This document shows positions 6,364 to 55,199 of a stretch of DNA of 64,000 nt, in pieces. Positions within the stretch are counted from its first letter, which is position 1. Each line of letters starts with the position of its first letter. Both the position numbers and the translations under genes were made by a program. Source of the stretch: a virus; the IMG/VR virus record IMGVR_UViG_3300012928_000001, positions 32,001 to 96,000 of that record. The stretch is one strand, 5' to 3'. A model generated the notes under the pieces. The model was not told where the DNA came from, made no database searches, and was given only the letters and a program-made list of their open reading frames with translations.

Positions 6364-7098
6364 ATGCGCTACGTAGGCGGCAAGACTCGGATCGCAAAAG
6401 AGCTCACCCCGTTCATCCTCGCGGCGGCCAAGAAAGCTGGCACATCGACGATCATCGAGCCCTTTTGCGGGGGCCTGGGCATGACGTGCGCACTCGTGAA
6501 AGCGTCGCCGTTCGTTCGCGTCGAGGCCAGTGATTACGCGCCCGGACTCATCACGCTCTATCGCAGCATCCGCGCCGGATGGAAGCCGCCCACCGATCTA
6601 GACAAAGCGCAGTGGGCGGAGCTCAAAAAGCGCGCGGGCGAAGATCACCGCCTAGTTGCATTCGCGGGGTTCGGGTGCAGCTTCAATGGGATCTACTTTT
6701 GCGGGTACGGGACCGAAAAGTTCCCCGGACAGGCCGCGCGAGGGCTCCGCAAAAAGCTCGACATCTGCACGCCCAAGCGGGTCACCCTAGAGTCCCGCAG
6801 CTATGCGGACATCGAGGTCACCGGCCCGTGTGTGATCTACTGCGATCCGCCCTATCGTGGCTGTGACCGCGACTCCTATCGCGCCCTGCACGGCACCCCA
6901 CACGAGCGATTCGACAGCGACGCGTTTTGGGAGTGGGCTCGCGTGTGCGCGGACAAGGGCGCGCATGTGCTCGTGAGCGAGTACGTAGGCCCGGACTGGG
7001 CGCGCGTACTGTGGCAGCGCGAGATCGTCTCCATGACCGGGAATCACAACGGTAAGGGCGACAAGGCAACCGAGAGGTTGTTTTACGTCGCGCCTTGA
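6364..7098 (+). CDS. dam: DNA adenine methyltransferase (Dam/D12 class)
   Basis: RYVGGK, EPFCGG, IYCDPPY, LVSEY, ERLF. Confidence 0.9.
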   Translation: MRYVGGKTRIAKELTPFILAAAKKAGTSTIIEPFCGGLGMTCALVKASPFVRVEASDYAPGLITLYRSIRAGWKPPTDLDKAQWAELKKRAGEDHRLVAFAGFGCSFNGIYFCGYGTEKFPGQAARGLRKKLDICTPKRVTLESRSYADIEVTGPCVIYCDPPYRGCDRDSYRALHGTPHERFDSDAFWEWARVCADKGAHVLVSEYVGPDWARVLWQREIVSMTGNHNGKGDKATERLFYVAP

Positions 7099-7115
7099 TT
7101 CATGCTGGTCCCACC

Positions 7116-8639
7116 ATGGGCGTACCAAAAGAGCAATTCGATGAATGGGTAGAGATCCCCTGGACGTTTCCCGAGGACACCATGTGTTGGGACGGCGACC
7201 GAGGTGGGACGGCGCCGCTACTCCTCGAAGACTATCAGCGGCAGTTCATGGACTGTCCGGCGAAGTATCGGGGTGTGAACAAATCGCGCCAGGTGGGGTA
7301 CTCATTCGTGTTCGCGGTCGAGTCGCTCACTCGGGCGATCATGGACCCCGGCCACACGTCGATGTTTGTCAGCTACAACCTCGACGACGCGCGAGAGAAG
7401 ATCACGATCATCCACAAGCTGCTCGATCTCAGCCCGGCGCTGCACGGTCTCGCTGATTTCGACGCGCTGAAAAATGACGTGAAAGTGAAGCCCAAGTGGG
7501 CGCGCAAGTGGTCGCTGATTCGGTCCCTCCCGTGCAGGCCCGTGCGAGGAAAGACCAAGGCTGATCTGTACCTCGACGAGATCGCCCACTATCAGGACGC
7601 AGAGCAGGTCTATCTCGGCAGCGCGCCCGCGACCGTGCGCTCCCTGACCGGTGGACAGATCACCGTTGCCAGTACCCCGAACGGGCGTGCTGGCATTTTC
7701 TGGGAGTGCATCGAGGGCCCGCGCTCGCGCCCGTACTGGAAGCAAAACGTCCCGTGGTGGGAGAGCCGGTATCTGTGCAGCGATGTCGAGCTCGCGCGCC
7801 GCGAGGCCGGGCTCATGACCACGGACGCGCGCATCTCAAAGTTCGCGCTGCCCAACCTCGTCGAGCTCTACGATGGCATGGCGCTGATCGACTTCCAGCA
7901 GGAATTCGAATGCGATTTTGTCGACGATGGATCGTCATACTTCCCGATGGACCTTCTCAACAAGAACGTCTGTCGGGATCGCCGATTGTGCCGAGATTTT
8001 GATGAGGTCTTGGAGAAGCGCCACCCCAAGGGCCAGCTTTTCGCCGGGGTCGACATCGGGCGATTCAAGGACACCACCGAAGTGGTGATTCTCGATCGGT
8101 GGCCTACGGAAAGCGCGTCAACGGGGTACGCCTATAGCCCGATGATGGTCATGACCATGGACCGCGTGAACACTCAGGAGCAAGGCGACCGGCTAGAGAC
8201 GCTCTTGAAGCATCCTGCGATTGAGCGGCTCTGGATCGACACTACTGGCATTGGTCTCGCCATCGGCGAGCGCCTGCGCAACGCCTTCCCTCGCAAGGTT
8301 GTGGGCGTCATGTTCACGACCCCGAGTAAAGAGCTCATGTGCGTGCTAGCTCGGCGCTCGTTCGAAAGGCTACTCGTCGACTTGCCTGATCCCGAGCACG
8401 AGGACAGCCGCGCCGGCCGTGAGGCCCGACTGTTCATCGATCACATCCACTCGATCAAGCGCCACGCGGGGACGGGCCGGCACGCTCGCTATGAGGCCGA
8501 GAGCACGACACACCACGGCGATCAGTTCTGGGCCTTTGCGCTCGTCATGCTGTGCGCCCATGAGGACCTGAAACCGCGACGCGATACGGCAACCCTGCGA
8601 GACGTTATCGACGTTTCGCTAGAGGCGAGTTTGGTATGA
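7116..8639 (+). CDS. terL: terminase large subunit
   Basis: KSRQVGYS, LYLDE, ASTPNG, GVDIGR, IDTTGIG, HGDQFWA. Confidence 0.92.
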   Translation: MGVPKEQFDEWVEIPWTFPEDTMCWDGDRGGTAPLLLEDYQRQFMDCPAKYRGVNKSRQVGYSFVFAVESLTRAIMDPGHTSMFVSYNLDDAREKITIIHKLLDLSPALHGLADFDALKNDVKVKPKWARKWSLIRSLPCRPVRGKTKADLYLDEIAHYQDAEQVYLGSAPATVRSLTGGQITVASTPNGRAGIFWECIEGPRSRPYWKQNVPWWESRYLCSDVELARREAGLMTTDARISKFALPNLVELYDGMALIDFQQEFECDFVDDGSSYFPMDLLNKNVCRDRRLCRDFDEVLEKRHPKGQLFAGVDIGRFKDTTEVVILDRWPTESASTGYAYSPMMVMTMDRVNTQEQGDRLETLLKHPAIERLWIDTTGIGLAIGERLRNAFPRKVVGVMFTTPSKELMCVLARRSFERLLVDLPDPEHEDSRAGREARLFIDHIHSIKRHAGTGRHARYEAESTTHHGDQFWAFALVMLCAHEDLKPRRDTATLRDVIDVSLEASLV

Positions 8640-9214: not shown

Positions 9215-10474
9215 GTGGCAACGCTCACCGATGCTGATTGGTACACGCTCACCGGGGATACGTATGTCCAAAACACGGCGCAGCTTTTTGCCGCTAGTTT
9301 CGAGGACACGATCACTCGTGCGCTCGCAGTCTTTGGCCCACGCACTGGACCGTTTGGCGCCGAGCTGGACAACGCGCAGCTTTACGGGATCTTGCAGACG
9401 CAGGGGATCACGTTCACGTCCGCGCAAGTGATCGACTCGGTCAACGTGCTTTTGCAGCGCGGGATCTTCTACCGCACGCTCGGCCCGAACCGTGCCGAGT
9501 ACATCAAAGCCGAGAATCAGGTGCCGCCTTTTTCCGAGGGTGGTGCTGGCTTTGGCGACGCGGCCACGAGCACGGCCGTCCCGGTGATCCGCCGCGGCCC
9601 TCAGGGGGAGCCCGGGCTGCAAGGCCCCGCCGGCCCCCAGGGGCCGCGAGGAATTCAGGGCACGACCGGCGTCCAGGGTCCCCAGGGAGCCACAGGCCCG
9701 GCCGGTGCCATGGGACCCCCAGGGCCCCAGGGCGACCCAGGGCCCGCGCTCGTGCCCGAGTCGTTCGCGTGGGCGTCGACGCAGCTCATCACCGCGGTCG
9801 CCAACACCTTCTACCTCATCTTCCCGGGGGCGCCCTCGGGCATGTTGACGCTTCGGCTCCCGGTCACGCCCCCGAACGGGACGCGGATCGGCCTGAGTCT
9901 CCCGACGAGCTCGCTCGCGGCGGCGGGGCAGCCCCTGACCTTGCTCGGCGGCGGCGCGACCATCTCGCTCCCGGTGGCCAATGAAGCCATGACTGTCCTC
10001 CTACAGCCAACCGATCCGCTGCTCCGCCCCGGCTTCGGATTGATCTTGACCTACTCGCAGAATGGCAATAGGTGGGTTACGTCTACCTGGTTTCAGGATG
10101 AGATCAATTTGCCGATTGGGCCTGATCGGCGAAACTCGTTTACGTCGACCGGAACTTACATCGATCTCGAAACACTCGGTACGGTTGCCGAAGGCGAAGC
10201 GTTCACATTCGAGGGGTCGGTGTCCGCGAGCTATCAGACCGGAGCGGGCGCGCGCTTCGTGGACATCATCCAAGTTCGTGGCACTGCTCGGCGCAACATG
10301 GGTGCACCCGGAACAACCGTGACAAGCAACATGCTTCCGAGCGGCAACCTACCCGGCGGCGACGCGCGGATCTTCGTGGTCGCCGGACAGAACGACGTGC
10401 GTCTACAGGTTCGCACGACCACCGCGGGCCAGACGTTGATCGTCGCGTGGAATGGAATTTGGCGATCGCTGTGA
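9215..10474 (+). CDS. collagen-like (Gly-X-Y) fibre protein
   Basis: 17 consecutive G-X-Y triplets at 9596-9748; beta-rich C-terminus. Confidence 0.85.
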
Positions 10475-11188: not shown

Positions 11189-11755
11189 ATGACCGCGCCT
11201 AACCTCGAACACATCGTGACGCCGTTGCGCCAGTTCGCCGTCCCGATTTCCGACCTGACCCCGGACCCGAAAAACGTCCGAATCCACAGCAAGCGCAACC
11301 GCGATGCGCTGCGCGTCAGCTTGACGAAATACGGGTTCATTGAGCCGATCATCGTCCAGCGGCAGGGCATGATCATCCGCGCGGGGAACTGTCGCACGAA
11401 GCTCGCGGGAGAGCTCGGATGGACCCACGTCCCCGCGCTCATCGTCGACCACAACGACGTCGAGGCGACGGCCTTCGCCATCACGCACAATCGCACAGGC
11501 GAGCTCGGCGAGTGGGATGAGAAGGCCCTCGCGCAACAGCTCGCGGAGCTGCAAGCGAGCTCGATCGAGCTGTTCACGACGACGGGTTTTGACGCGGCCG
11601 AGGTCGATAGGCTGCTCGGGACCCCGCTCGTGATTCCTGACGACCCCGTCGAAGAGCTGACCCCGCCGGACAGCTTCCCGGAGATCGACGGGACCGAGCC
11701 CACCGATCACCGCTGCCCCTCGTGCGGCTACGAATGGAACGGGAAGTCGAAGTGA
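11189..11755 (+). CDS. ParB/Sulfiredoxin N-terminal domain protein with C-terminal Zn ribbon
   Basis: PDPKNVRIH, YGFIEPII, IRAGNCR, NRTGELGEWD, CPSCGYEW. Confidence 0.88.
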   Translation: MTAPNLEHIVTPLRQFAVPISDLTPDPKNVRIHSKRNRDALRVSLTKYGFIEPIIVQRQGMIIRAGNCRTKLAGELGWTHVPALIVDHNDVEATAFAITHNRTGELGEWDEKALAQQLAELQASSIELFTTTGFDAAEVDRLLGTPLVIPDDPVEELTPPDSFPEIDGTEPTDHRCPSCGYEWNGKSK

Positions 11756-12006
11756 TCGAGCAGCTCCGCCGTCGGCTCGACTATACCGACCGCCTACTGG
11801 TCCGGCTGCTCTCGCAGCGGTCGGGTCTCGTGGCCAAGGTCCAGCGCGCCCGCGCAGCCGGGGGCGGGCCCTCGCGGGACCCTGAGCGTGAGGAGGTCGT
11901 GCGAGCCCGCGCCGAGCAGCTCGCCCGCGAGCTCGGGGGCTACCCGCCCGATGTTGTGCTCACGATCTTCGAGATTCTGTTCGCCAACGCGGAGCGGGCC
12001 CAATGA
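11752..12006 (+). CDS. chorismate mutase (AroQ / CM_2 type)
   Basis: IEQLRRRLDYTDRLLVRLLSQR...RDPEREEVV...Q pattern; GTGA and ATGA overlaps with both neighbours. Confidence 0.85.
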   Translation: MIEQLRRRLDYTDRLLVRLLSQRSGLVAKVQRARAAGGGPSRDPEREEVVRARAEQLARELGGYPPDVVLTIFEILFANAERAQ

Positions 12007-13091
12007 AGCCGCCGTACTACGTGCCGACCATGGCTGTGGTCGAGGCCGCGCGGGGGACCAATGGCTACACCGCGGTCTCGACGTTCTCGGGCGCGGGCGG
12101 CAGCTGTCTCGGGCACACCCTCGCCGGCTTCGCTGTGCTGTGGGCGAATGAGTTCATTCCCGCTGCGCAAGATACCTACATGCGGAATCATCCTACCTCG
12201 CATCTCGATACCCGAGACGTGCGAGAGGTGCAGGGCGCCGACATCCTGAACGCGGTCGGAAAAGACATCGGGGAGATCGATCTTTTCGATGGCAGCCCGC
12301 CGTGCTCCGCGTTCTCGAATGCGGGGAGTCGGGGCCAGCAGTGGGGAAAGATCAAAGGCTACAGCGACACCAAACAGCGGGTTGATGATCTGCTCTTCGA
12401 GTTCGCGCGTCTCGTCGCGTTCACGCGCCCGCGGGTGTTCGTCGCTGAGAACGTTGGGGGGTTGCTCCGCGGTAAGGGGTTGGGACGGTTTCGGGAGCTC
12501 GTCAAGCGTCTGCCGGGGTACACGATCCGCGCTCAGACCATGGACGCGGTTTGGATGGGCGTCCCCCAACGCCGCGAGCGGGCGATCATCATCGGTGTTC
12601 GCAGTGATCTAGGAGTGCCGCCAGCATTCCCGAAGCCGCTGAAATACTACTACACGGCCGGAGACGCGCTCCCGTGGCTACGCGCTCCCGCGGGCACCCG
12701 CGTTGCGCGTCTGGGCGAGATCACCGATCGCGTCCCTCTAGCCAAGAGCCGGCGCGAGGGCAAAAAGTACAACACCTACGAAGTGCTCCCACATAGGCCC
12801 TGTCCCACCGTCACCGTGGCGAGCGATGGCAATGACCTGTTTATCATCGGTCCGACTGAGCAGGAAGCCAATGCTGGCATCATCGCGCCCGCGGACCCGC
12901 GGAAGATCAATATCTCCGAGCTCCGCCGCCTGTGTGGCTTTCCTCCAGACTTCCAGCCTACTGGGTCGTTCTCGAAGCAATATGAGCGACTCGGCCGCGC
13001 TGTTCCGCCACCCATGATGTGCGCCGTAGCCTCGACGATCCGCGATGCTGTGCTACGAAAAGCAGACCATGGGCAGCAACAGCAGCATTGA
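12003..13091 (+). CDS. DNA cytosine-C5 methyltransferase family; putative carboxymethyltransferase
   Basis: Motif I FSGAGG, IV GSPPC, VI ENV, VIII QRRER, X LGRAVPP (R in place of the usual N). Confidence 0.92.
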   Translation: MKPPYYVPTMAVVEAARGTNGYTAVSTFSGAGGSCLGHTLAGFAVLWANEFIPAAQDTYMRNHPTSHLDTRDVREVQGADILNAVGKDIGEIDLFDGSPPCSAFSNAGSRGQQWGKIKGYSDTKQRVDDLLFEFARLVAFTRPRVFVAENVGGLLRGKGLGRFRELVKRLPGYTIRAQTMDAVWMGVPQRRERAIIIGVRSDLGVPPAFPKPLKYYYTAGDALPWLRAPAGTRVARLGEITDRVPLAKSRREGKKYNTYEVLPHRPCPTVTVASDGNDLFIIGPTEQEANAGIIAPADPRKINISELRRLCGFPPDFQPTGSFSKQYERLGRAVPPPMMCAVASTIRDAVLRKADHGQQQQH

Positions 13092-13782
13092 TCACACCCC
13101 CGAGGACCGCTGGGTCTTTGACGAGTCCGTCGCGGATTGCTTCGAGGACATGTTGTCCCGATCCATCCCACAACACGACGAGATGCGCCGACTCGTCGGC
13201 AACGTCGGCGGGGTCGGGGTGGCCGACGGGACCCTTGTCGTTGACTTGGGATGTAGCCTCGGTCAGGCGATTGTCGACGTGCGCCGAGTAGCTCTCTCGC
13301 GTGGCATCAATGCGGTGTATCATGGGCTGGAGACGAGCGCTCCGATGCTTGATCGTGCCAAAGCGCGATTCGACTCTGTCGATGTCTTTGTAACGAACGA
13401 AGATGTGCGGACATGGAACGGCGACAACTGTAGCGTGGTGCTGGCAGTGCTTACGCTACAGTTCATCCCGATCAACTACCGACAGCAAATCATCCGCAAC
13501 GTATTCGAGTCCCTGAACCCCGGTGGGCGCTTCGTGCTCGTCGAGAAAGTGCTGGGCGAAGGGGCGCAGGTCGATGATCTCATGGTCGCGCACTATCACC
13601 ACAACAAACTCCAACAGGGCTATTCGAGGCAAGCTGTACGAGCGAAAGCGGAGTCCCTCGAAGGTGTGTTGGTCCCGGTGACTGCTGGCATGAACGAATC
13701 GATGCTTCGCCGTGCGGGCTTCCGTGAGGTAGACTGCTTTTGGCGATGGATGAATTTCGCGGCATGGGTGGCGATCAAGTAG
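13069..13782 (+). CDS. cmoA: CmoA-like carboxy-S-adenosylmethionine synthase
   Basis: WVFDESVADCFEDMLSRSIP, DLGCSLG, TLQF, LNPGGRFVLVEK, GYS..K..LEGV, AGF...W.NF, collinear with E. coli CmoA as recalled. Confidence 0.85.
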   Translation: MGSNSSIDHTPEDRWVFDESVADCFEDMLSRSIPQHDEMRRLVGNVGGVGVADGTLVVDLGCSLGQAIVDVRRVALSRGINAVYHGLETSAPMLDRAKARFDSVDVFVTNEDVRTWNGDNCSVVLAVLTLQFIPINYRQQIIRNVFESLNPGGRFVLVEKVLGEGAQVDDLMVAHYHHNKLQQGYSRQAVRAKAESLEGVLVPVTAGMNESMLRRAGFREVDCFWRWMNFAAWVAIK

Positions 13783-13976
13783 CCTGCGAACACCCGAGCC
13801 CCACAGAGCTCGTGCCCGGCGTGAAGTTGTGTCGGGGCTGTGGGGCTCTCCATGTGAACGGTCGATGGGGGCGCGTCCCGTTGCCCCCAAAGCCGTGCTG
13901 TGAGGAGTGCGAGCAGAACCGTCGACGGCTCGCCGATACTTGGTACAGAGAGCGTAAGTGTGCAGGTTGCAAATGA
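13764..13976 (+). CDS. small Cys-rich protein
   Basis: CRGC, CCEEC, CAGC; overlaps both neighbours. Confidence 0.4.
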   Translation: MGGDQVACEHPSPTELVPGVKLCRGCGALHVNGRWGRVPLPPKPCCEECEQNRRRLADTWYRERKCAGCK

Positions 13977-14295
13977 GATCCGGCGCGCGTTTCTCCGCGC
14001 CCAAATGCGCGTTGATCTGGAGCGCAACCTAGACGCGCTAGCAGATGCGCATGGGGTGAGCGTCGAGTACGTCGCGGGTATGATCAAACACGTGATCGAG
14101 ACCTGCGCGGGGGACCACGTTGACATGCTCTTCGCCGTAGACAGTCGGCTCCAGCGGGGCGTGCATGTCGAGCCCGTCGCGCCCCTGACCGAGACCGTCA
14201 ACAAAGTACAGGCGGCGCTGTCGTCAGGCCTGAAAGACGTGGTATCGTCTGGCCCGAATGCGCTACAGCGTGAAAGTCTTCGCCGTCCGGTGTGA
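13900..14295 (+). CDS. hypothetical protein (true start probably downstream)
   Basis: ORF track; helical C-terminal region. Confidence 0.55.
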   Translation: MRSASRTVDGSPILGTESVSVQVANEIRRAFLRAQMRVDLERNLDALADAHGVSVEYVAGMIKHVIETCAGDHVDMLFAVDSRLQRGVHVEPVAPLTETVNKVQAALSSGLKDVVSSGPNALQRESLRRPV

Positions 14296-14494
14296 CGAGA
14301 AGGGCCGGCGCCTGCCCACCCCCGAGGGCAAAAAGCCCTACGTCGCCCAGGACCGGGTTCACGTCGAGGCCCAGGGACACGATGCCGCCAAGGCAGCTGC
14401 GCGCGCCGAGCTGTCCAAGGGCCGTGGCCGGGTCATCTCGATCAACTTCGAAAGCGATACCGCGCTCGTGGCGTACGTGGAGAGCAGCAAATGA
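14258..14494 (+). CDS. hypothetical protein
   Basis: GC3-rich ORF, ATGA overlap with next. Confidence 0.65.
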   Translation: MRYSVKVFAVRCDEKGRRLPTPEGKKPYVAQDRVHVEAQGHDAAKAAARAELSKGRGRVISINFESDTALVAYVESSK

Positions 14495-14856
14495 GTCGCC
14501 GTGCAATCATTGGTAACGAGGCCGATCTAACGCGGCATCTCCCGACCGACCCCAACGACCCCGACACGCTCGTCACGGGCAATTCGGAGACCTACGATGT
14601 GTCGCGGTTTCAGATGCAGACGGCGGCGGTACACTTCGGTTTTGACGCGGGCTCTTCTGGCGACTACACGCTACAGGGAGCCGTTGGTAGTTCGAGTCCT
14701 TGGGTGGATATTCAATCGAACATCACAAGCGATACGCTGATCAACTTCTCGGAGCCGCCGAATAATCATTACTGGGCTCGGTTGCGTGTTGTTGTGAATA
14801 CTGTAGGCGCCGAAGATGATACAATCACCCTCGGCGCGCACGAGTACGTTTGGTAG
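14491..14856 (+). CDS. hypothetical beta-sandwich virion-like protein
   Basis: YTLQG...PWVDI...RLRVVV pattern. Confidence 0.6.
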   Translation: MSRRAIIGNEADLTRHLPTDPNDPDTLVTGNSETYDVSRFQMQTAAVHFGFDAGSSGDYTLQGAVGSSSPWVDIQSNITSDTLINFSEPPNNHYWARLRVVVNTVGAEDDTITLGAHEYVW

Positions 14857-14876
14857 TCGCAAAAAGGAAATAAAAG

Positions 14877-15791
14877 ATGCCCGGCCGCAATCCAGTTTTT
14901 CCTGCCCCGCGAGATATTCGTCGTCAAACGTACTATCCCGGCGTTTCGCTATCGCTTGCCGAGATGGTCGCGCTCGGCCATATCGCGGGCGCAAAAATTG
15001 TGCACTTTACCGGACGCCGAGAAGATGTAGACGGTGAGGCCGAAGCATGGTCGGCACTCCTACCGACTACGCGTGCCCCATACCGGCCCGATATTTCTGG
15101 CGGACCTATTGGGTGGACTCCCGAGCCTTTGACGGCGCAGAGTACTTCGTCAGATGACGGGGGCGCCGGATCGGGTGCGCAGGTACTACTAGTTGAATAC
15201 CTGAACGCGGATGGGTTTGAACGCATTGGTCTCGCACTGCTCGCGGGAACGGGGACAGTACCGGTTCTCGAAGCAACGTCACAAGGTGTTGGTAATGCAA
15301 ACACCATTGTCCCGTTGATGCCTCCAACGCCTGCTACGGGAGTACGCGTAAACCGCGTAACAGTAGTTGCCGGTGGTGTGCCAGCAGGGAACTGCACCGT
15401 CGAACTTGGTGGTCAAGCTGCACAGCGGCTGCTTCCGGGTCAAGCGCTGTCATCGACAAGTCGCTTTACTGTGCCACGTGGATTTATTGGGTTGATTCAC
15501 GGTCTCGGCTATGGTGTTGATCGTGAACAGCGGGGGCTCGTGCGTGTTTATGCACAGCCGCTCGGGCGGCTGGACTATGAGTTCACCGCCTACGAGGCCA
15601 GTAACGGTGCCCTTGCGGTACCGCTTGCAGAGCCAATTCGGCTAGCACCGCTGGGTGAGTTGGGACTAACTTTTGAAAAGGACTCGGGTGGTGGAAACAT
15701 CGATGTATCCAGCATTCTGCAACCGATCTTCCTCCCGGATCCCAACGACCCTGATCCAGCGCCAGAACGACAAGCGCCGCCGTTGGGCTGA
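14877..15791 (+). CDS. hypothetical virion-associated protein
   Basis: 304-aa ORF with SD (AAGGA); lower GC3 than neighbours. Confidence 0.65.
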   Translation: MPGRNPVFPAPRDIRRQTYYPGVSLSLAEMVALGHIAGAKIVHFTGRREDVDGEAEAWSALLPTTRAPYRPDISGGPIGWTPEPLTAQSTSSDDGGAGSGAQVLLVEYLNADGFERIGLALLAGTGTVPVLEATSQGVGNANTIVPLMPPTPATGVRVNRVTVVAGGVPAGNCTVELGGQAAQRLLPGQALSSTSRFTVPRGFIGLIHGLGYGVDREQRGLVRVYAQPLGRLDYEFTAYEASNGALAVPLAEPIRLAPLGELGLTFEKDSGGGNIDVSSILQPIFLPDPNDPDPAPERQAPPLG

Positions 15792-15798
15792 GTAGAAC

Positions 15799-17778
15799 AT
15801 GAGTGCTCTAGACGCTTTTTTTGCTACTGAGTTGCCGCCTCAACGCTCCTCGGTAGAAAAAGTCGACACAGCAAATGACGCCGTAAGTAAGGGGTCTGTG
15901 CGTACGTCATACACGGGACGAGACGGTACAGAGCGAAGCAACGTACTACAGACAGACGCAGGGACGCGACGGTTGTTCGCACGGCATGGTGCCATTGAGC
16001 CGCCTTTGGACCCTATTATGCTTGCGCATTTGCACGAGATGAGTGGGGCGCTGCGCTCAAACATCGATGCATATGTCACTAACATTGACGGTTTCAGCCA
16101 CACGTTTGAGCCGTCACTAGATCTTGACGATGACGAGACCCGCGAGCGCATCGCCCAGGCCATGCTCGAAGAGCGGATCCTCGGGGTGGTCCAAGAGGCG
16201 AGTGTCGAGGAGCAGGCCAAGCGCCTGCTGAAAGAGTTCGCCGCCGCGAATGATGGGGAGGATGGAGAGCCGACCGGGGCCGACGATCAAGCCCCCCTCG
16301 ACGTCACGCCACCGACCGATGCCGAGGTCGAGGCACGGATCGACGCCATCCGCCGGGAGATGATCCGCGAGCGCATGCGGCTCGAACGGTTTTTTGAGTT
16401 CTGCTGCGTCACGGAGAGTTTCATGTCTCTTCGCATGCGCACGCGGCAGGACATCGAGCTGATCGGGAATGGCTATTGGGAGGTGCTGCGCAACTCCAAC
16501 GGCGACATCGTGCAGTTCACGTATGTGCCAGCATTCACGGTGCGACTACTCCCGGCCGACAAGGACCCGATCGAGGTCGAGATGCCGGTGAAGCTCACCG
16601 CCATCACGGAGAACACCGAGACCGTCGTTCGCCGCTTCCGCCGATTCTTGCAGATCAGCGAGACCCGCGAGCGCACGGTGATCTACTTCAAGGAGTTCGG
16701 CGACCCACGCGTGGTGAGCTCGAAGACCGGCGAGGTCTACGAAACCCCCGAACTACTGGCAAAGGCGGAGGGCGACACTCGCCCCGCTACCGAGATGATC
16801 CACTTCAAAGTTCACAACTCCCGGACGCCCTACGGCGTGCCCCGGTGGGCGAGTGAGCTGCTCGGAGTGCTCGGCAACCGCAACGCCGACGAGGTCAACC
16901 TCGCGTACTTCGAGAACCGTGCGATCCCGCCGATGATCCTCACCGTCTCGGGTGGTCGTCTCGCGGGTGACTCCGCGACGGTCTTTGAGAACTACTTCAA
17001 ATCCCAGATCCGCGGCAAGCGGCACCATCACAGTGTGGCGATTGTCGAGGCCGAGCCCCCGGGACTCGCGGGCGGCATGACGAACGGCACCGTCAAGCTC
17101 GACGTGATCAAGCTGCGCGATGTCCAGCAGGATGACGCGATGTTCATGGGCTACCGCGAGGCCAACGTCGACGCGATCGGCTCCGTGTTCCGCATGCCCC
17201 GGCTGCTCCGCGGCGACGTGCGAGACTTCAACCGCGCGACCGCCCAGACCGCCCTCGACTTCGCCGAAATGCAGGTGTTCGCACCGCTCCGCGCTGAGTT
17301 CGATTTCACGATCAACCGGCAGATCCTCGCCGACTTTGGCGTGCGGTTTTGGAAGTTCAAGAGCGGCACGCCGGACTTCTCCGACCCCGCCGAAGTGCTG
17401 CAAAATCTCCAGCTCGCGGAGAAGTACCTCGTGCCCAACGAACAGCGCGAGGCGGCCGCGGGAGCCCTCGGCCGCGAGCTCGAAAAGCTCGACGCGGCCT
17501 GGGCCCGGGAGCGTCCTCTCGCCGTCACGCTCGCCGCCATCGAGCGCAAGACGAACCTGGTCGACGTCGACGGCGAGGCCCTGCCCGAGCAGGAGCCCCC
17601 GCCCCCACCCGAGGCCAAGCCGCTCGCGGGCGGGCCCCCAGGAGTCGACGAGGGCGAGGAAGAGCAGGCCAAGGCTATCCGCAAGAGCGTCGACGAGCGC
17701 GTGCGCGACCTGATCGAGCTGCGCGACGCCGCCGATCGGCTCGGGTTCCTGTCGACCAAGGACATGCTCGATGTGTGA
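15799..17778 (+). CDS. portal protein (PBSX-like)
   Basis: IGNGYWEVLRN, EMIHFK, PYGVP, YFENRAIP, FRMP; position before head genes. Confidence 0.9.
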   Translation: MSALDAFFATELPPQRSSVEKVDTANDAVSKGSVRTSYTGRDGTERSNVLQTDAGTRRLFARHGAIEPPLDPIMLAHLHEMSGALRSNIDAYVTNIDGFSHTFEPSLDLDDDETRERIAQAMLEERILGVVQEASVEEQAKRLLKEFAAANDGEDGEPTGADDQAPLDVTPPTDAEVEARIDAIRREMIRERMRLERFFEFCCVTESFMSLRMRTRQDIELIGNGYWEVLRNSNGDIVQFTYVPAFTVRLLPADKDPIEVEMPVKLTAITENTETVVRRFRRFLQISETRERTVIYFKEFGDPRVVSSKTGEVYETPELLAKAEGDTRPATEMIHFKVHNSRTPYGVPRWASELLGVLGNRNADEVNLAYFENRAIPPMILTVSGGRLAGDSATVFENYFKSQIRGKRHHHSVAIVEAEPPGLAGGMTNGTVKLDVIKLRDVQQDDAMFMGYREANVDAIGSVFRMPRLLRGDVRDFNRATAQTALDFAEMQVFAPLRAEFDFTINRQILADFGVRFWKFKSGTPDFSDPAEVLQNLQLAEKYLVPNEQREAAAGALGRELEKLDAAWARERPLAVTLAAIERKTNLVDVDGEALPEQEPPPPPEAKPLAGGPPGVDEGEEEQAKAIRKSVDERVRDLIELRDAADRLGFLSTKDMLDV

Positions 17779-31848: not shown

Positions 31849-34590
31849 ATGGCATTGAACGGACTCGGCCTAGGGCTCACCTTTTCCGCGGCGGATCTTG
31901 CTAGCGGACCGATCCGGCGACTGACTCACTCGGTCGCTTCCTTGGACATCGCGTTGACGCGAGTGACCAAGCGGATCGCAGGATTCAACGCTTCGCAGCG
32001 CGGCATGGTCCGCGCTGCCCGTGGCGCCCAAAAGCGCATCAACGGCAAGACCGCGGCCCTGAGTCAGGCGAACGTGGTCATGGTCGAGCACGCCGCACGG
32101 ACGCGGCAGGTTGCCCAAGCGCAGCGGGCCACGACGGGAAGCACCGGGGCGATGGTCAAGCGCTTCGGCACGCTTGCCGTGGCCGCGGGCGCGACGTTCC
32201 TCGCATTCCGTGCGGCGGATTTTGCGAGCAACTTCAATCAGCAGCTAGTCGCCACCCAAAAGATCATGGGGGCGACGGACGAGCAGCTCGGCGCCATGGA
32301 GGAGAAAATCCTCGATGTCGGGTTGCGTACCAAGTTCTCCCCTGACGAGATCGTCGAGGGAATGAAAAACCTTGGCTCTGCTGGCCTCGCTGCCGGGGAG
32401 GCCATGGCTGCCATCGAGCCCGCGGCCTTGCTCGCCACCGCCGGACAGATCGGGCTGGACAGCGCGAGCCGGGCGATCGTCGGTACCCTCAAGTCGTTCT
32501 CGCTCGAAGCGGACCAGGCGGGCATCGTCGCAGACAAGCTGGCGCGAACGACTCAGCTGTCCAACTTGCAGGCCGCGGATTTCGAGATCGGCCTCTCGAA
32601 GGCGGCGGCGTCCATGGGTGCGTTCGAGCAGAGCATGGACGACACGCTAGTCGGCCTCGGTGCTCTGCGAAATGCCAACATTGATGCGAGCTCGGCGAGT
32701 ACTGCCTTGCGCGAGTCGGTGCGTCGCGTGTTCGCGGACAAGCGCGCGCGGGAGCAGCTCAAGGGCTTGGGGATCGACGTCGACAAGCTCAATGAGAGCG
32801 AGCACGGCCTCATTGACACGATCTTTGAAGTCGACGCAGCGACCAAGGACATGACCAAATCGCAGCGCGATGCGAAGGTCGCTGCGATTTTCGGCGCGCG
32901 TGGCCTGCTCGCGTTCAACTCCATCTCGAAGCTCACTCACCGCACCATGCGGGACGGGCAAGAGGTAACGCTCAAGGGCGCCGAGGCCTTCGAGGTGATG
33001 CGCGAGAAGGTCGCCAACGCCGATGGCACCGTCAAGGATTTCAATGATGCGATGTTGGACACCTTCGAGGGTCAAAAGCAGATCCTCTCGGGCGCCGTCG
33101 ACACGTTGCGTGTGGTCCTCGGCCAAGGGTTCGCGCGCGTCCTAAAGCCGGTTGTGCGATTCACCGCCGAGTCGGTGGGCAAGATCGCCAAGTTCATCAA
33201 AGAGCTCTCGCCGCAGACCAAAGAAGCGGTAGCCAAGCTCGCCGGCTTCACCGGCGTCGTGCTCGGGCTCGTCGGTGCTGTCATCGCGGTGGGTGCTCCT
33301 GTGGCCGCTGTGATTGCCGGCATCGGTACCGCGGTGGTCGGGGTCAAACGCATCATCGATACCAACGTGGGCGGCATCGGTGATCGTTTCCGCGGGCTGC
33401 TCGCTAGCGCCAAGCTCTTTTTCCGCGGGTTCTCGCAGCTCATCACGGACGGCTTTTTGTCCGGCGAGACGCTGGCGTCGCTGCAAGAAGAGGAGAACGC
33501 CAATGTGCTGACCGCCCTTGTGCGGCTCGTGCAGATCGGCCATCGGATCCAGCGATTCTGGGGCGGAATTCAAGAGGGATTCAGGACCGCGATGGAAGGC
33601 GCCGCGCCGACCTTCGAGGCGCTACAGAACGCCTTCGATGAGCTGGGGAAAGCGCTTGGGTTTGCGGGTGATGAGTTCACCGCGATCAAGACTCCCAGCG
33701 AGCGCTTCGCCGCTGCGGGTCGAGTCATCGGGAAGATCCTCGCGCGCTTGGTCGAGGGCGGGGCACAGTTCCTCGTGTTTTGGCTTCGCTTCCGCGCCGG
33801 TCTCGTGAAGGGCGTCCGCACGGTGCTCACCGCTGCGCGTCCGGCCCTCGACAATCTGCGCGTCGCGTTCGGGCGACTCGTGGAGGCCGGCGGTAGCATC
33901 CTGCGCGTGCTCGGGCTCGTGGATGGTGGATTTGGGAAGTCGGGGGATACCGTCGACATGCTCGCCCAGGTTCTCGTTAGCCTGATTCAGTACGTGCTGA
34001 TCCCGATGATCAATGCGTGGGCGTGGGTGTTCGAAAAGACGGCGAAGGTGTGGCGCGCCTTCGCTATCGGAATCGCCATCGTGCGCGCCCTGATCAACGC
34101 AGGGATTTGGCTCAAAGATACGATCGTCGACGGCATCGCGGGGGCCTTCGATTTCATCGCCGAAAAGGTGCCCGTGCTCGGAAAGGTGATCGACGTATTC
34201 GATCGCATCGTCGACCGCATCACCCAGGCCCGCGACCGCATCCGAGAGTTCCGGCAGCTCGTCAGCTTCGGCGGCGAGGGGGGCGTTCGAGACCAGGTCC
34301 GTGGGGCCATCGGCGCCCGCGTGAACACCTTCCTGGGCTCGGCGCTGGGGGTCGACCAAAACGCCGGAGCAGCCGCGTCAGCGGCCGGCACACAGCGCGC
34401 CCGCGAGTTCGCGGACCAGGCCCAGGCTCAGGCCTCGGCGCTCGCCCAGGAGATGCGGAAGACCGCGGGCGGCGGCGAGAAGGCCAACGGGCAGGCGACC
34501 AACGTGACGCTCATGCTCGACAGCGAGGTTCTGCTCGAAGTTCTCACCAACGCGCAACAGACCGCGACCGCGGCCGGATTCGGAGGCTAG
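31849..34590 (+). CDS. tape measure protein (TP901 family)
   Basis: TKFSPDE, ADKLA, ASSASTALR, IFGARG; long Ala-rich helical protein. Confidence 0.93.
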   Translation: MALNGLGLGLTFSAADLASGPIRRLTHSVASLDIALTRVTKRIAGFNASQRGMVRAARGAQKRINGKTAALSQANVVMVEHAARTRQVAQAQRATTGSTGAMVKRFGTLAVAAGATFLAFRAADFASNFNQQLVATQKIMGATDEQLGAMEEKILDVGLRTKFSPDEIVEGMKNLGSAGLAAGEAMAAIEPAALLATAGQIGLDSASRAIVGTLKSFSLEADQAGIVADKLARTTQLSNLQAADFEIGLSKAAASMGAFEQSMDDTLVGLGALRNANIDASSASTALRESVRRVFADKRAREQLKGLGIDVDKLNESEHGLIDTIFEVDAATKDMTKSQRDAKVAAIFGARGLLAFNSISKLTHRTMRDGQEVTLKGAEAFEVMREKVANADGTVKDFNDAMLDTFEGQKQILSGAVDTLRVVLGQGFARVLKPVVRFTAESVGKIAKFIKELSPQTKEAVAKLAGFTGVVLGLVGAVIAVGAPVAAVIAGIGTAVVGVKRIIDTNVGGIGDRFRGLLASAKLFFRGFSQLITDGFLSGETLASLQEEENANVLTALVRLVQIGHRIQRFWGGIQEGFRTAMEGAAPTFEALQNAFDELGKALGFAGDEFTAIKTPSERFAAAGRVIGKILARLVEGGAQFLVFWLRFRAGLVKGVRTVLTAARPALDNLRVAFGRLVEAGGSILRVLGLVDGGFGKSGDTVDMLAQVLVSLIQYVLIPMINAWAWVFEKTAKVWRAFAIGIAIVRALINAGIWLKDTIVDGIAGAFDFIAEKVPVLGKVIDVFDRIVDRITQARDRIREFRQLVSFGGEGGVRDQVRGAIGARVNTFLGSALGVDQNAGAAASAAGTQRAREFADQAQAQASALAQEMRKTAGGGEKANGQATNVTLMLDSEVLLEVLTNAQQTATAAGFGG

Positions 34591-48314: not shown

Positions 48315-48920
48315 TCAGACTCCGAGGTTGGGCGGGTTGGGCTCGAAGACCACGCCCATCCGCTCGCGCTCGGTGGTGTCCTTGCCGAGCTCTTCGTAGA
48401 AGCGATCGAAGGTCGCTTGATCCTTCGTGAAGAGCGCGTACAGGTGAGGGTGCCGCGGCTGCGGCTGCAAGATGGGCGAGCCGCCGCCCTCGCGGTCCGG
48501 GGCGTAGGACTTGATCCGCGCGCGGAGCAGGCAGACGCTCGCCGCGAACTCGGGCAGGTAGGTGTGAAACCAGGCCCGGTCCGTGGCCGCCGGGAGCAGG
48601 GCCAGCACCGTCGAGCCGCGCTGGGCCTCGATCGACGCTTTCTGAACCCACCGGCTCAGCGGGTACCACTCGAAGTTGGGCTCTTCCTCGGGCCGGCGCT
48701 CGCCGTGCGTCGGGTTGAGCAACACGCGAGGACCCCAGGCCAAGCGCATCCCGTCGTTCTCCGCGGTGTCGCCAAAGCAGACCCGGTCGGCCTTGAGGAA
48801 CTGGTCCGGGTGACCGCACGGATCGTCGGTCGGCTGACCGCCGAGGATCCGATAGGCGCGCTCGCACTCTTCGGGCGGGAGTAGGTAGTCGTATTCGATG
48901 ATCTTGGGGGGCTTGCTCAT
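48315..48920 (-). CDS. phage N6-adenine MTase-like protein with variant catalytic motif
   Basis: DDPC, DGM..W..RVLLNPTH (NPPY position), WVQKA, LLPAATDRAWF. Confidence 0.7.
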   Translation of the reverse strand: MSKPPKIIEYDYLLPPEECERAYRILGGQPTDDPCGHPDQFLKADRVCFGDTAENDGMRLAWGPRVLLNPTHGERRPEEEPNFEWYPLSRWVQKASIEAQRGSTVLALLPAATDRAWFHTYLPEFAASVCLLRARIKSYAPDREGGGSPILQPQPRHPHLYALFTKDQATFDRFYEELGKDTTERERMGVVFEPNPPNLGV

Positions 48921-49327
48921 GGGCTTGCGTCCTCTTCCTGGGTGAAGCCGAGACACGCACTCACCGTGGTAAGCAGTAGCGGTGCCTCGACGATGGCGCG
49001 CCCGATCGTACATGCCTCGCGCATGAGACAATTCGGGCACAAGTGATTCTCGCTGCGCAGCGCTTCGAGTGCGCTCGCCGTGTCGGGAGTGTCGGTCTCG
49101 ACCGGGGCCGCGGACTCCCACAGAGCATCGAGCGCCTTGGCCTGTGTGGGATCGGTGTAGTCCGTGAATGTCGCCATGTTATCGCGGTCTGCCGCGTGCA
49201 TGCCAGCCATGGCATCCTCGGCAGTCTGCACGGCGAGTTGGGCGTTGTGAGCCTCGATCTCTCCTCGCTGCCCCTCGTCGCTCACCCACCGAACGATGGT
49301 GCCGTCAATCCACACTTGATATCGCAT
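48917..49327 (-). CDS. hypothetical protein with C-terminal Cys cluster
   Basis: CPNC...C...C; overlaps both neighbours. Confidence 0.6.
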   Translation of the reverse strand: MRYQVWIDGTIVRWVSDEGQRGEIEAHNAQLAVQTAEDAMAGMHAADRDNMATFTDYTDPTQAKALDALWESAAPVETDTPDTASALEALRSENHLCPNCLMREACTIGRAIVEAPLLLTTVSACLGFTQEEDASP

Positions 49328-50693: not shown

Positions 50694-52115
50694 CTAGTCG
50701 CGGACCCAGATTTTTTCGCCGTAGTTGATCTTGCTGTCGTATCCGCCGCCCTCGACCCAGGGCTCGCACGCATGGTCGCCGACGAGGACCCAGATCACCT
50801 TGAAGCCCTTCGGCGGGAGCGCGGGGCCAGGTCCTCCGCCGTCGGTGAGGACCACGAGCAGGTTCACGTCGTCGAGCCTCTCGACCGCCTCGAAGATCGG
50901 GGTGAAGTAGGTCCCCCCGCCGCCCTTCAAGCTCTTGCCGAGCTCCGTCCAGCTGTGGACTTTCTTGGCGCCGCCGTGGACCTTGGCGTCGCAGCTCAGG
51001 AACTGGATGTCGTCGACCTCTTCGAGGATGCCCTTGCACTCCGCGAGCGCGAGCGCGAGATCGTCTTGTCCCATGCTCCCCGACGTGTCGACCGCGACCG
51101 CGACCTTGGGTTGCATGCCCACCATGGTGGGCAGGATGGGGTGCCCGGGGCCGTAGCCCAGGGCGCCCTGTTGACGCGAGGGGCGGTGCAGGGAGTAGTC
51201 CATCATCCCCGCGATGTGCTGCACCGCGCCGCGCAGGGTCTTGCGGAGCTCATCCTGCCAGCGGATCTTTGGCGGCTTGATCTTGTCCTCCGCCCAGACC
51301 GCCCAGCCCTTGGGGACCGAGCCGCGCCCGTTTTGCTTGGCGTAGCTCTGGACCTGCTCCGCGGTTTCCTTGCGGAGCTGCTCCAGCTCCGACTCGCTGC
51401 GCCCGCCCTCGGTCGGGTTGGCCCCGTTGCCGGCCCCGTCGTTGGCGATGCCCTCGCCGTCTCCGTCGCCGTTGCCGTTGCCGTCGCCGTTGCCGTCGCC
51501 CTGTCCTGGGTTCCCGCTGCCGTCGCTCGTGTAGTTCTCCTCGCCGGGGAGCGGGTTCCCAGCTCCGCCGCCGCACATGCCCGAGCCCGGGCGCGCGCCC
51601 GGGACGGCCTTGGGCGGATTGTCCATGGCGAGCAGCGCGTGATAGTAGACGACTTCCGGCAATCCGGTTTCCATGGGTTCCATGGTCTGCGGATGCGTGA
51701 TCTTGTGGGGCAACATGTCCGACGGTAGCGGCTTCAACCCCGCGGCGATCAAGTCGTCATTGATCGCCGCGTCATAGGCCAGATTCGCAATCTGCGGATT
51801 CCACCCATTGGCGATCGTCATGGTGACGTGATCTCGAATGATGTGCATCGTCTCGTGCAGCAGCCCGAACTCGACATCCGCGAGTGACCACTTTTCGATG
51901 ACATCGGGATCGTAGAGCAAGATCGCCGTGCGCGTGACCGCCATGCCGGCGCCCATCTTGGCCATCATGCCGGGCACGGCTCGGGGGATGAGACTGAGCA
52001 GCGCCGTGCCGAAGTAGGGGAGTCGACGACGCGCGATGAATCGCGCCGTCATGATTTTCTGATCGTGCGACAGGTGTTCGGCGTTGGCGTTGGTGAAGCG
52101 GCTTCGACGGCTCAT
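50694..52115 (-). CDS. DUF2201-type metallopeptidase + vWA domain protein
   Basis: LLHETMH, NLAYDAAIN, VDTSGSM, GGGT.F, LTDG. Confidence 0.92.
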   Translation of the reverse strand: MSRRSRFTNANAEHLSHDQKIMTARFIARRRLPYFGTALLSLIPRAVPGMMAKMGAGMAVTRTAILLYDPDVIEKWSLADVEFGLLHETMHIIRDHVTMTIANGWNPQIANLAYDAAINDDLIAAGLKPLPSDMLPHKITHPQTMEPMETGLPEVVYYHALLAMDNPPKAVPGARPGSGMCGGGAGNPLPGEENYTSDGSGNPGQGDGNGDGNGNGDGDGEGIANDGAGNGANPTEGGRSESELEQLRKETAEQVQSYAKQNGRGSVPKGWAVWAEDKIKPPKIRWQDELRKTLRGAVQHIAGMMDYSLHRPSRQQGALGYGPGHPILPTMVGMQPKVAVAVDTSGSMGQDDLALALAECKGILEEVDDIQFLSCDAKVHGGAKKVHSWTELGKSLKGGGGTYFTPIFEAVERLDDVNLLVVLTDGGGPGPALPPKGFKVIWVLVGDHACEPWVEGGGYDSKINYGEKIWVRD

Positions 52116-53118: not shown

Positions 53119-54324
53119 TCAGTAGAGGTTCATCAGGCCCGCGGCTTCGAGCATCGGCCGGAGGGCGCCGACCTGGGTGGCCCCGTGGACGCCGATCAGG
53201 CCGCGGTCGATCAGGACCTTGGCGGGATGCAGCGCCGCGTCGCCGGCCGTCTTCGAGACCTCGCCGATGAGGCGCCACAAGGCCTGCCCTCGCGCGTCGC
53301 GGTTGGGGCAGTCGTCGGAGCCCACGAGGGTCGCGCAGCTCCGCATCACCGCTTGGGTGATGTCGGGGCGATCCTTGCGGTGCTTCCAGGTGACCTTGCC
53401 GTCGAGCAGGTCGGTCGTCTTGGGCAAGTCGAGCCTGTTGCGGTAGGCGACGTACTCGCCGTGCACCTTCGAGCCCACGAAGCTGGCCATGAGCGCGTCG
53501 ATCTGCGCGGGCGAACACCCGTTCGCGTAGCCGGCGGCCTGGGCCCGGATCGCCATCTCCCACGAGCGCGCCGAGGGCCACGCCCCCGCGGCGCTGGGGT
53601 CGGTCGCCTTGGGCATGCGGTTGAGCAGCTCGGTGCGGTTCTCGATGAACGCCGTCACGACGCCCGCCGACTGGGCGTAGGCCTCGGGCCACGCCTTGCG
53701 CATGCGGGTGGTCTCGGTGGCGTAGCGCTCGGCCATCTCCTCGGTCGACGGCTTGGGCTGCCCGGAGCTGCCGCCCGCGATCATGTAGGCCGACCACTGC
53801 CGCGCCGACGCCCCGGCGAAGTTGGTGTGTCCGAAGCGGTTGGCGAGGGCGGGCGTCAGATCGTAGCCGCCGCTCGCCATCTCGGGCGGGTTGGCGTCGA
53901 GCAGGAAGCGGACCCCCGGGGGGAGGTGGAACCCGCCGACGACACCTTCGTTCACGACGCGGAGCAGGGCGCCCTGGGTCGCGGGCGTGCAGGTCGTGAC
54001 TTCGTTGATCAAGATGATCACGCCCATGCCCGCCTCGACGGCGCGCGCCGCCTCGACGGCCCAGTCGGGCACGGCGAAGCGCGTGATCATGACGTCTTGA
54101 CCCATGAGCTTGGTACGCTCCGGGATCGGCAGACCCAGGAAGTCACTGGGCTGCATGAGCGCGGCGGACAGGGTGATCACGACCATTCCCAGGCTCTCGC
54201 CGATCTGGCGGAGGATCCCGGTCTTGCCGACGCCGGGGACGCCCATGGTGAGGATGGGCAGACCCTCGCGGTCGTTGAGCCCCTCGGCGAGTAGTGCGGT
54301 CTCGATGATTTTGTGACTGAACAT
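53119..54324 (-). CDS. MoxR-like AAA+ ATPase
   Basis: GVPGVGKT, ILINE (Walker B variant), ANPPE, ALANRF, PSARSWE. Confidence 0.92.
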   Translation of the reverse strand: MFSHKIIETALLAEGLNDREGLPILTMGVPGVGKTGILRQIGESLGMVVITLSAALMQPSDFLGLPIPERTKLMGQDVMITRFAVPDWAVEAARAVEAGMGVIILINEVTTCTPATQGALLRVVNEGVVGGFHLPPGVRFLLDANPPEMASGGYDLTPALANRFGHTNFAGASARQWSAYMIAGGSSGQPKPSTEEMAERYATETTRMRKAWPEAYAQSAGVVTAFIENRTELLNRMPKATDPSAAGAWPSARSWEMAIRAQAAGYANGCSPAQIDALMASFVGSKVHGEYVAYRNRLDLPKTTDLLDGKVTWKHRKDRPDITQAVMRSCATLVGSDDCPNRDARGQALWRLIGEVSKTAGDAALHPAKVLIDRGLIGVHGATQVGALRPMLEAAGLMNLY

Positions 54325-55128: not shown

Positions 55129-55199
55129 GACCGCGTACGCCAACGGTAGAGCGCAGAACTAGCTAGTCTGGGTTGCGGGTTCGAATCCCGCCGCGGATC
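55129..55199 (+). tRNA. degenerate tRNA / pseudo-tRNA (apparent anticodon AGC)
   Basis: CCGCG/CGCGG acceptor core, D loop AACGGTA, CAGA/TCTG stem, GCGGG-TTCGAAT-CCCGC; mismatches at stem ends, no CCA. Confidence 0.6.

Follow-up and report, generated by a model that had tools for sequence, protein, structure and literature searches.

Gene content of the locus

The stretch of DNA analysed here (the window, 64,000 nucleotides) spans positions 32001–96000 of a virus record of 105,163 bp, which has a GC content of 64% and a direct terminal repeat of 123 bp, and which is rated as a complete phage genome. Between the genes for the large terminase (7095–8639), upstream, and the portal protein (15799–17778), downstream, lies a cassette of four genes on the plus strand, in which each later gene begins before its predecessor has ended. 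The first encodes a 188-aa protein with a ParB N-terminal (ParBc) domain (11189–11755; PF02195, E 8.7e-7; phrog_620, E 3e-36). It is followed by the gene for an AroQ-type chorismate mutase of 84–94 aa (from 11722, 11734 or 11752 to 12006; PF01817 CM_2, E 6.7e-14), by that for a 362-aa homologue of the DNA cytosine C5-carboxymethyltransferase CmoX (12003–13091; PF00145, E 2.3e-45) and by that for a homologue of the carboxy-SAM synthase CmoA (from 13045 or 13069 to 13782; TIGR00740, E 5.2e-48; phrog_4752, E 3.9e-67). A ParB gene directly upstream of the CmoX homologue was found in about 78 of the 84 loci that we compared, and ParB-domain neighbours of CmoX, with function unknown, have been noted before (Yang et al., 2025).

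Two further genes resemble methyltransferases. A D12-class N6-adenine methyltransferase gene (6364–7098, plus strand; PF02086, E 1.5e-11) stands directly upstream of the terminase gene, and a Dam-like match on the minus strand (48315–49121; PF05869, E 5e-4) is weak and under the cut-off; the phage probably carries several DNA modifications. Between the terminase gene and the modification cassette, a plus-strand gene (9215–10474; PF01391, E 2.8e-9) encodes a 419-aa protein with collagen triple-helix repeats, a likely fibre or decoration protein. Elsewhere in the window a DUF2201 metallopeptidase/VWA-like protein (50694–52115) and an AAA_5 (MoxR-like) ATPase (53119–54324) are annotated on the minus strand, and there is a single tRNA gene, tRNA-Ala(AGC), at 55129–55199. 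The large terminase was uninformative as a guide to the host, its best cultured match (Brevibacillus phage Emery) being 31% identical.

The CmoX homologue and its motif X arginine

The open reading frame at 12003–13091 matches the C5-cytosine methylase profile PF00145 over profile positions 2–322 of 324, and is the sole PF00145 gene in the complete genome. Its closest relative of known structure by sequence is PDB entry 8yf3 (E 4.2e-51, about 34% identity), the crystal structure of SpCmoX from Synechococcus phage S-B43 (Yang et al., Nat Commun 2025, December; PMC12783734). An AF2 model made with 27 relatives (pLDDT 81, pTM 0.84) likewise found 8yf3 first in a Foldseek search (E 6.5e-29, TM 0.73/0.79). 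In this model pLDDT falls below 50 at residues 229–257 and 273–293, which belong to the target-recognition region, and because this region is poorly modelled the target motif of the enzyme is unreadable from its sequence.

SpCmoX makes 5-carboxymethylcytosine (5cxmC) from carboxy-SAM (Cx-SAM), the cofactor being supplied by the phage CmoA (Yang et al., 2025). In the 1.9 Å crystal structure with Cx-SAM, its Arg350 stands in for Asn304 of HhaI and is in contact with the carboxymethyl group; the authors liken this residue to the engineered N374K substitution of M.MpeI. The wild-type enzyme accepts only Cx-SAM and modifies GC, not CG (Yang et al., 2025). The same study collected 5,615 candidate CmoX proteins from IMG/VR, the source of the present record, and other databases by the combination of an SPPC motif (S95–C98 in SpCmoX) and the Arg, with 4,257 CmoA, 2,251 ligase and 1,660 ParB-domain genes as neighbours.

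The original prediction, made from the letters of the window, was that motif X of the present protein carries an Arg in place of the usual Asn, and the reading frame bears this out. Positions 12993–13010 read GGC CGC GCT GTT CCG CCA in the frame of the ATG at 12003, which gives motif X as G331-R332-A333-V334-P335-P336 within ERLGRAVPPP, with the CGC codon of Arg332 at 12996–12998. Motif IV with the catalytic Cys (S98-P99-P100-C101; 12294–12305) and motif VI (E149-N150-V151; 12447–12455), both on the plus strand, are invariant among 84 aligned relatives, as are Q189, R191 and R193. In ungapped phmmer alignments R332 stands opposite an Asn, that of GNAVP in M.HaeIII and that of GNAVPPP in DNMT1 and MET1, so that its place is that of the motif X Asn, as had been proposed; an ungapped alignment also sets it opposite Arg350 of SpCmoX (chain residue 350 of 8yf3). 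The equivalence to Asn304 of HhaI runs through the structural superposition reported by Yang et al. (2025). The window protein thus combines the C5-methyltransferase fold and family, the SPPC motif, the counterpart of Arg350 and a nearby CmoA, and by its sequence it is a new, divergent member of the published CmoX family.

It had further been proposed that Arg332 binds the carboxylate of Cx-SAM and acts as a specificity switch. The first part is favoured by analogy with Arg350 in the SpCmoX crystal structure, which makes the corresponding contact. The notion of a switch that one residue could throw in either direction did not survive, since SpCmoX R350N accepts neither SAM nor Cx-SAM (Yang et al., 2025), and the motif X residue alone is thus no reversible switch. 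As both the family and what the motif X Arg does in it have been in print, with a crystal structure, since December 2025, the reading of Arg332 is not a discovery.

Arg332 and CmoA among relatives

For comparison we assembled 80 viral-contig relatives and three cultured-phage loci, and searched their flanks for homologues of ParB, CmoA and ligases. The column of Arg332 holds Arg in 81 of the 84 aligned relatives, Asn in two and a gap in one, which is a truncated sequence; the Arg of the window protein is thus no sequencing artefact. A CmoA gene lies within about 5 kb in 76 of the 81 loci with Arg, in neither of the two with Asn and not beside the truncated sequence. The expectation that an Arg in motif X would go with an adjacent cmoA is thereby upheld, on counts that are not independent events because the relatives are mutually related. 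Two further cultured phages agree with the association: Pseudomonas phage PaBG has GRSVPP together with CmoA and an asparagine synthase, and Aphanizomenon phage CL131, with GNCVPP, lacks a CmoA.

The five Arg-types that lack a CmoA include two contigs of about 4 kb and the triplet L050, L051 and L052. The CmoX homologues of the triplet are identical in sequence; no CmoA was found in the flanks that were fetched, and about 2.5 kb further downstream the CmoX query matches a second time. Since the record of L052 is rated complete, CmoA may here be supplied by the host, or be encoded elsewhere.

A third class of phage C5-methyltransferase homologues was also seen, in which Met takes the place of the motif X Asn (GMSVPP), motif IV reads SPPCS and no CmoA is nearby. 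It is represented by homologues in phages of Phocaeicola (L096, 4103–5071), Bacillus (L097, 3950–4990) and Flavobacterium (L098, 3926–4993). We considered whether the Asn-types (L047, L048 and CL131) are natural revertants from Arg, and a quick maximum-likelihood tree rooted on the Met-types did nest them within the Arg clade. A tree that constrains the Arg-types to one clade has a log-likelihood 14 units higher (p-AU 0.73). A single origin of the Arg is thus not rejected, and the direction of the change between Asn and Arg cannot be told from these trees.

Canonical C5-methyltransferases have a Gln directly after the catalytic Cys (PCQ). At this position, residue 102 of the window protein (codon 12306–12308), all 82 Arg-types have Ala, Ser or Lys, and two of the three Asn-types have Gln. 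Residue 102 may be a second position of the cofactor pocket, but we regard this as a lead only, because the Met-types, which have no CmoA, also carry Ser, and because N374K is effective in M.MpeI as a single substitution (as cited in Yang et al., 2025).

The CmoA homologue

The gene following that of the CmoX homologue has two candidate starts, ATG 13045 (245 aa) and ATG 13069 (237 aa), the latter giving the better fit to the family profile, and with the first start it shares 47 nt with the 3′ end of cmoX, with the second 23 nt. TIGR00740 is by far the best family for the product, with a score of 163.8 bits that lies under the curated cut-off of 193.3, and its alignment with E. coli CmoA (4gek, E 1.8e-34) spans the proteins over their full length. 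CmoA converts SAM and its co-substrate prephenate into Cx-SAM (Yang et al., 2025). In the E. coli enzyme, Arg199, described as conserved, forms a salt bridge to the carboxylate of the cofactor (PMC3663124). By alignment this position is Ala in the window homologue and Glu in SpCmoA, and the Lys that immediately precedes it is invariant; the position of E. coli Tyr39 is His in the window protein. As SpCmoA is active with Glu at this site, Arg199 is no requirement in the phage branch of the family.

Ligases and the end product

In S-B43 the final base is a glycine amide, and bare 5cxmC was undetected (Yang et al., 2025). We looked throughout the complete genome of the window phage for a CmoY-type ligase, which would form an amide of 5cxmC, and found none: there was no match to PF00733 (asparagine-synthase type), PF00501 (AMP-binding) or PF13535 (ATP-grasp), and tblastn with SpCmoY and with gp124 of Streptomyces phage TurkishDelight gave no match either. 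Because a CmoY-type ligase was not found, plain 5-carboxymethylcytosine is the likely end product.

Alternatively, 5cxmC could be only an intermediate, which a downstream enzyme of a kind other than the families searched (CmoY, asparagine-synthase, AMP-binding or ATP-grasp) converts to a hypermodified base. The amidated base of S-B43 is a precedent for this, as is the presence of 2,251 ligases for the 5,615 candidate CmoX proteins (Yang et al., 2025), and the four ORFs that separate cmoA from the portal gene (13900–15791), which have no Pfam match and among them one weak PHROG match of unknown function, could hide a ligase of an unrecognised family. We nevertheless consider this unlikely. The complete genome holds no detected ligase family, and the situation is not exceptional, as over half of the published CmoX contexts (Yang et al., 2025) and about half of our 84 loci are without a ligase. 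From the gene context, 5-carboxymethylcytosine itself is most likely what the cassette delivers.

The chorismate mutase

The small gene between those of the ParB-domain protein and the CmoX homologue can start at GTG 11722 (94 aa), at ATG 11734 (90 aa; the public gene call) or at GTG 11752 (84 aa). The last of these starts overlaps the ParB stop (GTGA), and the stop of the gene overlaps the start of cmoX (ATGA). The product scores 52.3 bits against CM_2 (PF01817), for which the gathering cut-off is 27, and its nearest relatives in the PDB are the Thermus chorismate mutase 2d8d (E 1e-7) and then MtCM of M. tuberculosis. The active site of the E. coli enzyme EcCM is made up of Arg11′, Arg28, Lys39, Asp48, Arg51, Glu52 and Gln88. 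In the alignment of seven phage chorismate mutases, R16, R33, D53, R56 and E57 do not vary, and position 44 holds Arg or Lys throughout; the correspondence of these residues with EcCM was drawn by hand and not from an alignment.

Of 80 related loci, 8 (about 10%) have a CM_2 gene within the cassette, and the six that were checked against Pfam all score above the cut-off. These copies come from searches with a local profile, from which only the matches of rounds 1 and 2 were kept, as round 3 drifted into capsid proteins. The loci that bear CM_2 are the window, L024, L034, L041, L046, L062, L066, L071, L081 and L084–L092. They comprise at least four divergent CM_2 lineages, and the gene is placed in the gap between ParB and CmoX, in that between CmoX and CmoA (L062) or after CmoA (L081); the type found in L066 stands between ParB and CmoX in 11 of the 11 loci where it was found. 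When 50 CmoX-bearing viral records were scanned whole, the only CM_2 matches were four copies within cassettes, and none lay outside a cassette. The window protein itself is isolated: a scan of viral contigs gave no relative, and a search of 5.8 billion proteins returned only the protein itself.

Yang et al. (2025) flagged the availability of prephenate as needing investigation, and chorismate mutase is unmentioned in the text and the searched supplementary material of their paper; our literature search found no paper that links a phage chorismate mutase with CmoA or Cx-SAM. The gene is a previously unreported but logical accessory of the CmoX cassette. From its position and its predicted activity, the likely role of its product is to provide CmoA with prephenate, the supply of which Yang et al. 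(2025) had left open.

It is also conceivable that the AroQ protein is not the source of prephenate for CmoA, and that it is, for instance, an isochorismate pyruvate lyase, or depends on a partner from the host in the way of MtCM. The latter is among its PDB relatives and is described in PMC4281200 as weak without its DAHP synthase partner, and about 90% of CmoX cassettes do without the gene. Yet the gene is embedded in the cassette by overlapping stops and starts, at least four divergent CM_2 lineages have come to lie at differing positions of such cassettes, and the role of prephenate as co-substrate of CmoA is the only known link among these genes. A function other than supply to CmoA therefore appears distinctly doubtful, and we retain the reading in which chorismate mutase feeds CmoA.

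Discussion

The best explanation of the locus as a whole, to which we assign a probability of about 0.85, is that a CmoX homologue works with a cofactor made by CmoA, probably from prephenate of the cassette's own chorismate mutase, and that without a ligase the result is most likely 5cxmC. The homology in sequence and fold, the conserved residues and the gene context together point in this direction; that the cofactor is Cx-SAM, that Arg332 binds its carboxylate and that the product is 5cxmC would follow by analogy with SpCmoX. In the proposed pathway, the AroQ chorismate mutase would probably turn chorismate of the host into prephenate, so that cofactor supply could keep pace with modification of the whole genome, and CmoA would combine SAM and prephenate to give Cx-SAM. 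Following the usual chemistry of the fold, Cys101 would attack C6 of the cytosine and the C5 carbanion would then attack the cofactor, whose extra carboxylate would be held by Arg332, where ordinary enzymes have Asn. With Cx-SAM in place of SAM, a carboxymethyl group would be put on C5 of cytosines in the phage's own DNA, and in a phage without a CmoY-type amide ligase the 5-carboxymethylcytosine may itself guard against restriction by the host. The stricter proposal of a shortened and self-supplied pathway, in which the phage's own AroQ chorismate mutase feeds CmoA, no ligase follows and the genome carries bare 5-carboxymethylcytosine, seems to us to have about an even chance of being correct. 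To our knowledge, bare 5-carboxymethylcytosine has so far been seen only in reconstituted or engineered systems, and none in native phage DNA.

That the enzyme is instead an ordinary SAM-dependent 5mC methyltransferase which tolerates the Arg, with CmoA serving host tRNA or the depletion of SAM, would agree with the canonical C5-methyltransferase motifs being all intact but is very improbable, given that wild-type SpCmoX with the same Arg took Cx-SAM only (Yang et al., 2025), that 81 of 83 relatives have retained the Arg, which goes together with CmoA, and that no CmoB-like protein is found among the genes annotated around the cassette.

The locus resembles that of SpCmoX in the fold of the enzyme, the SPPC motif, the motif X Arg, the adjacent CmoA, the phage origin and, as in many family members, the ParB-domain neighbour. 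It differs in the low identity of the enzyme (about 34%), in its setting in an uncultured phage of 64% GC, in the lack of CmoY and in the chorismate mutase inserted into the cassette. Among cultured phages the closest relative of the window CmoX homologue is gp123 of TurkishDelight, with 43% identity. The stretches gp121–125 of TurkishDelight and gp176–180 of Pseudomonas phage PaBG encode, as the window does, a ParB protein, a C5-methyltransferase with GR(A/S)VPP and a CmoA-like protein, but they have a ligase of asparagine-synthase or glutamine-amidotransferase type, and no gene in these stretches is annotated as a chorismate mutase.

M.MpeI N374K and the CmoX homologue both have a basic residue where motif X normally has Asn, which allows, or in the homologue would allow, the use of Cx-SAM. 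In M.MpeI, however, this residue is a Lys introduced by engineering, and the bacterial enzyme, which is specific for CpG, otherwise uses SAM (as cited in Yang et al., 2025), whereas the window protein has a natural, conserved Arg and belongs to a lineage whose characterised member uses only Cx-SAM. The tRNA cmo5U pathway of E. coli, formed by CmoA and CmoB, is alike in the chemistry of CmoA and in that a basic residue recognises the carboxylate of Cx-SAM. There the acceptor is ho5U of tRNA, reached through CmoB, and not C5 of cytosine in DNA, reached through a C5-methyltransferase fold; the phage CmoAs, including the active SpCmoA, furthermore lack the Arg199 of E. coli CmoA.

For recognising DNA carboxymethyltransferases from sequence, the Arg in motif X can serve as a marker. 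A use of the present enzyme in the sequencing of 5mC is speculative, and would first need the target sequence of the enzyme. To the enzyme family as published the locus adds little, namely a divergent, ligase-less member of high GC content, which could be a source of DNA with unamidated 5cxmC, and a chorismate mutase encoded by the phage, which bears on how phages secure prephenate for the modification of a whole genome. If our interpretation is true, chorismate mutase is a recurrent and unreported accessory in about one tenth of CmoX cassettes, and would answer the question of prephenate supply raised by Yang et al. (2025).
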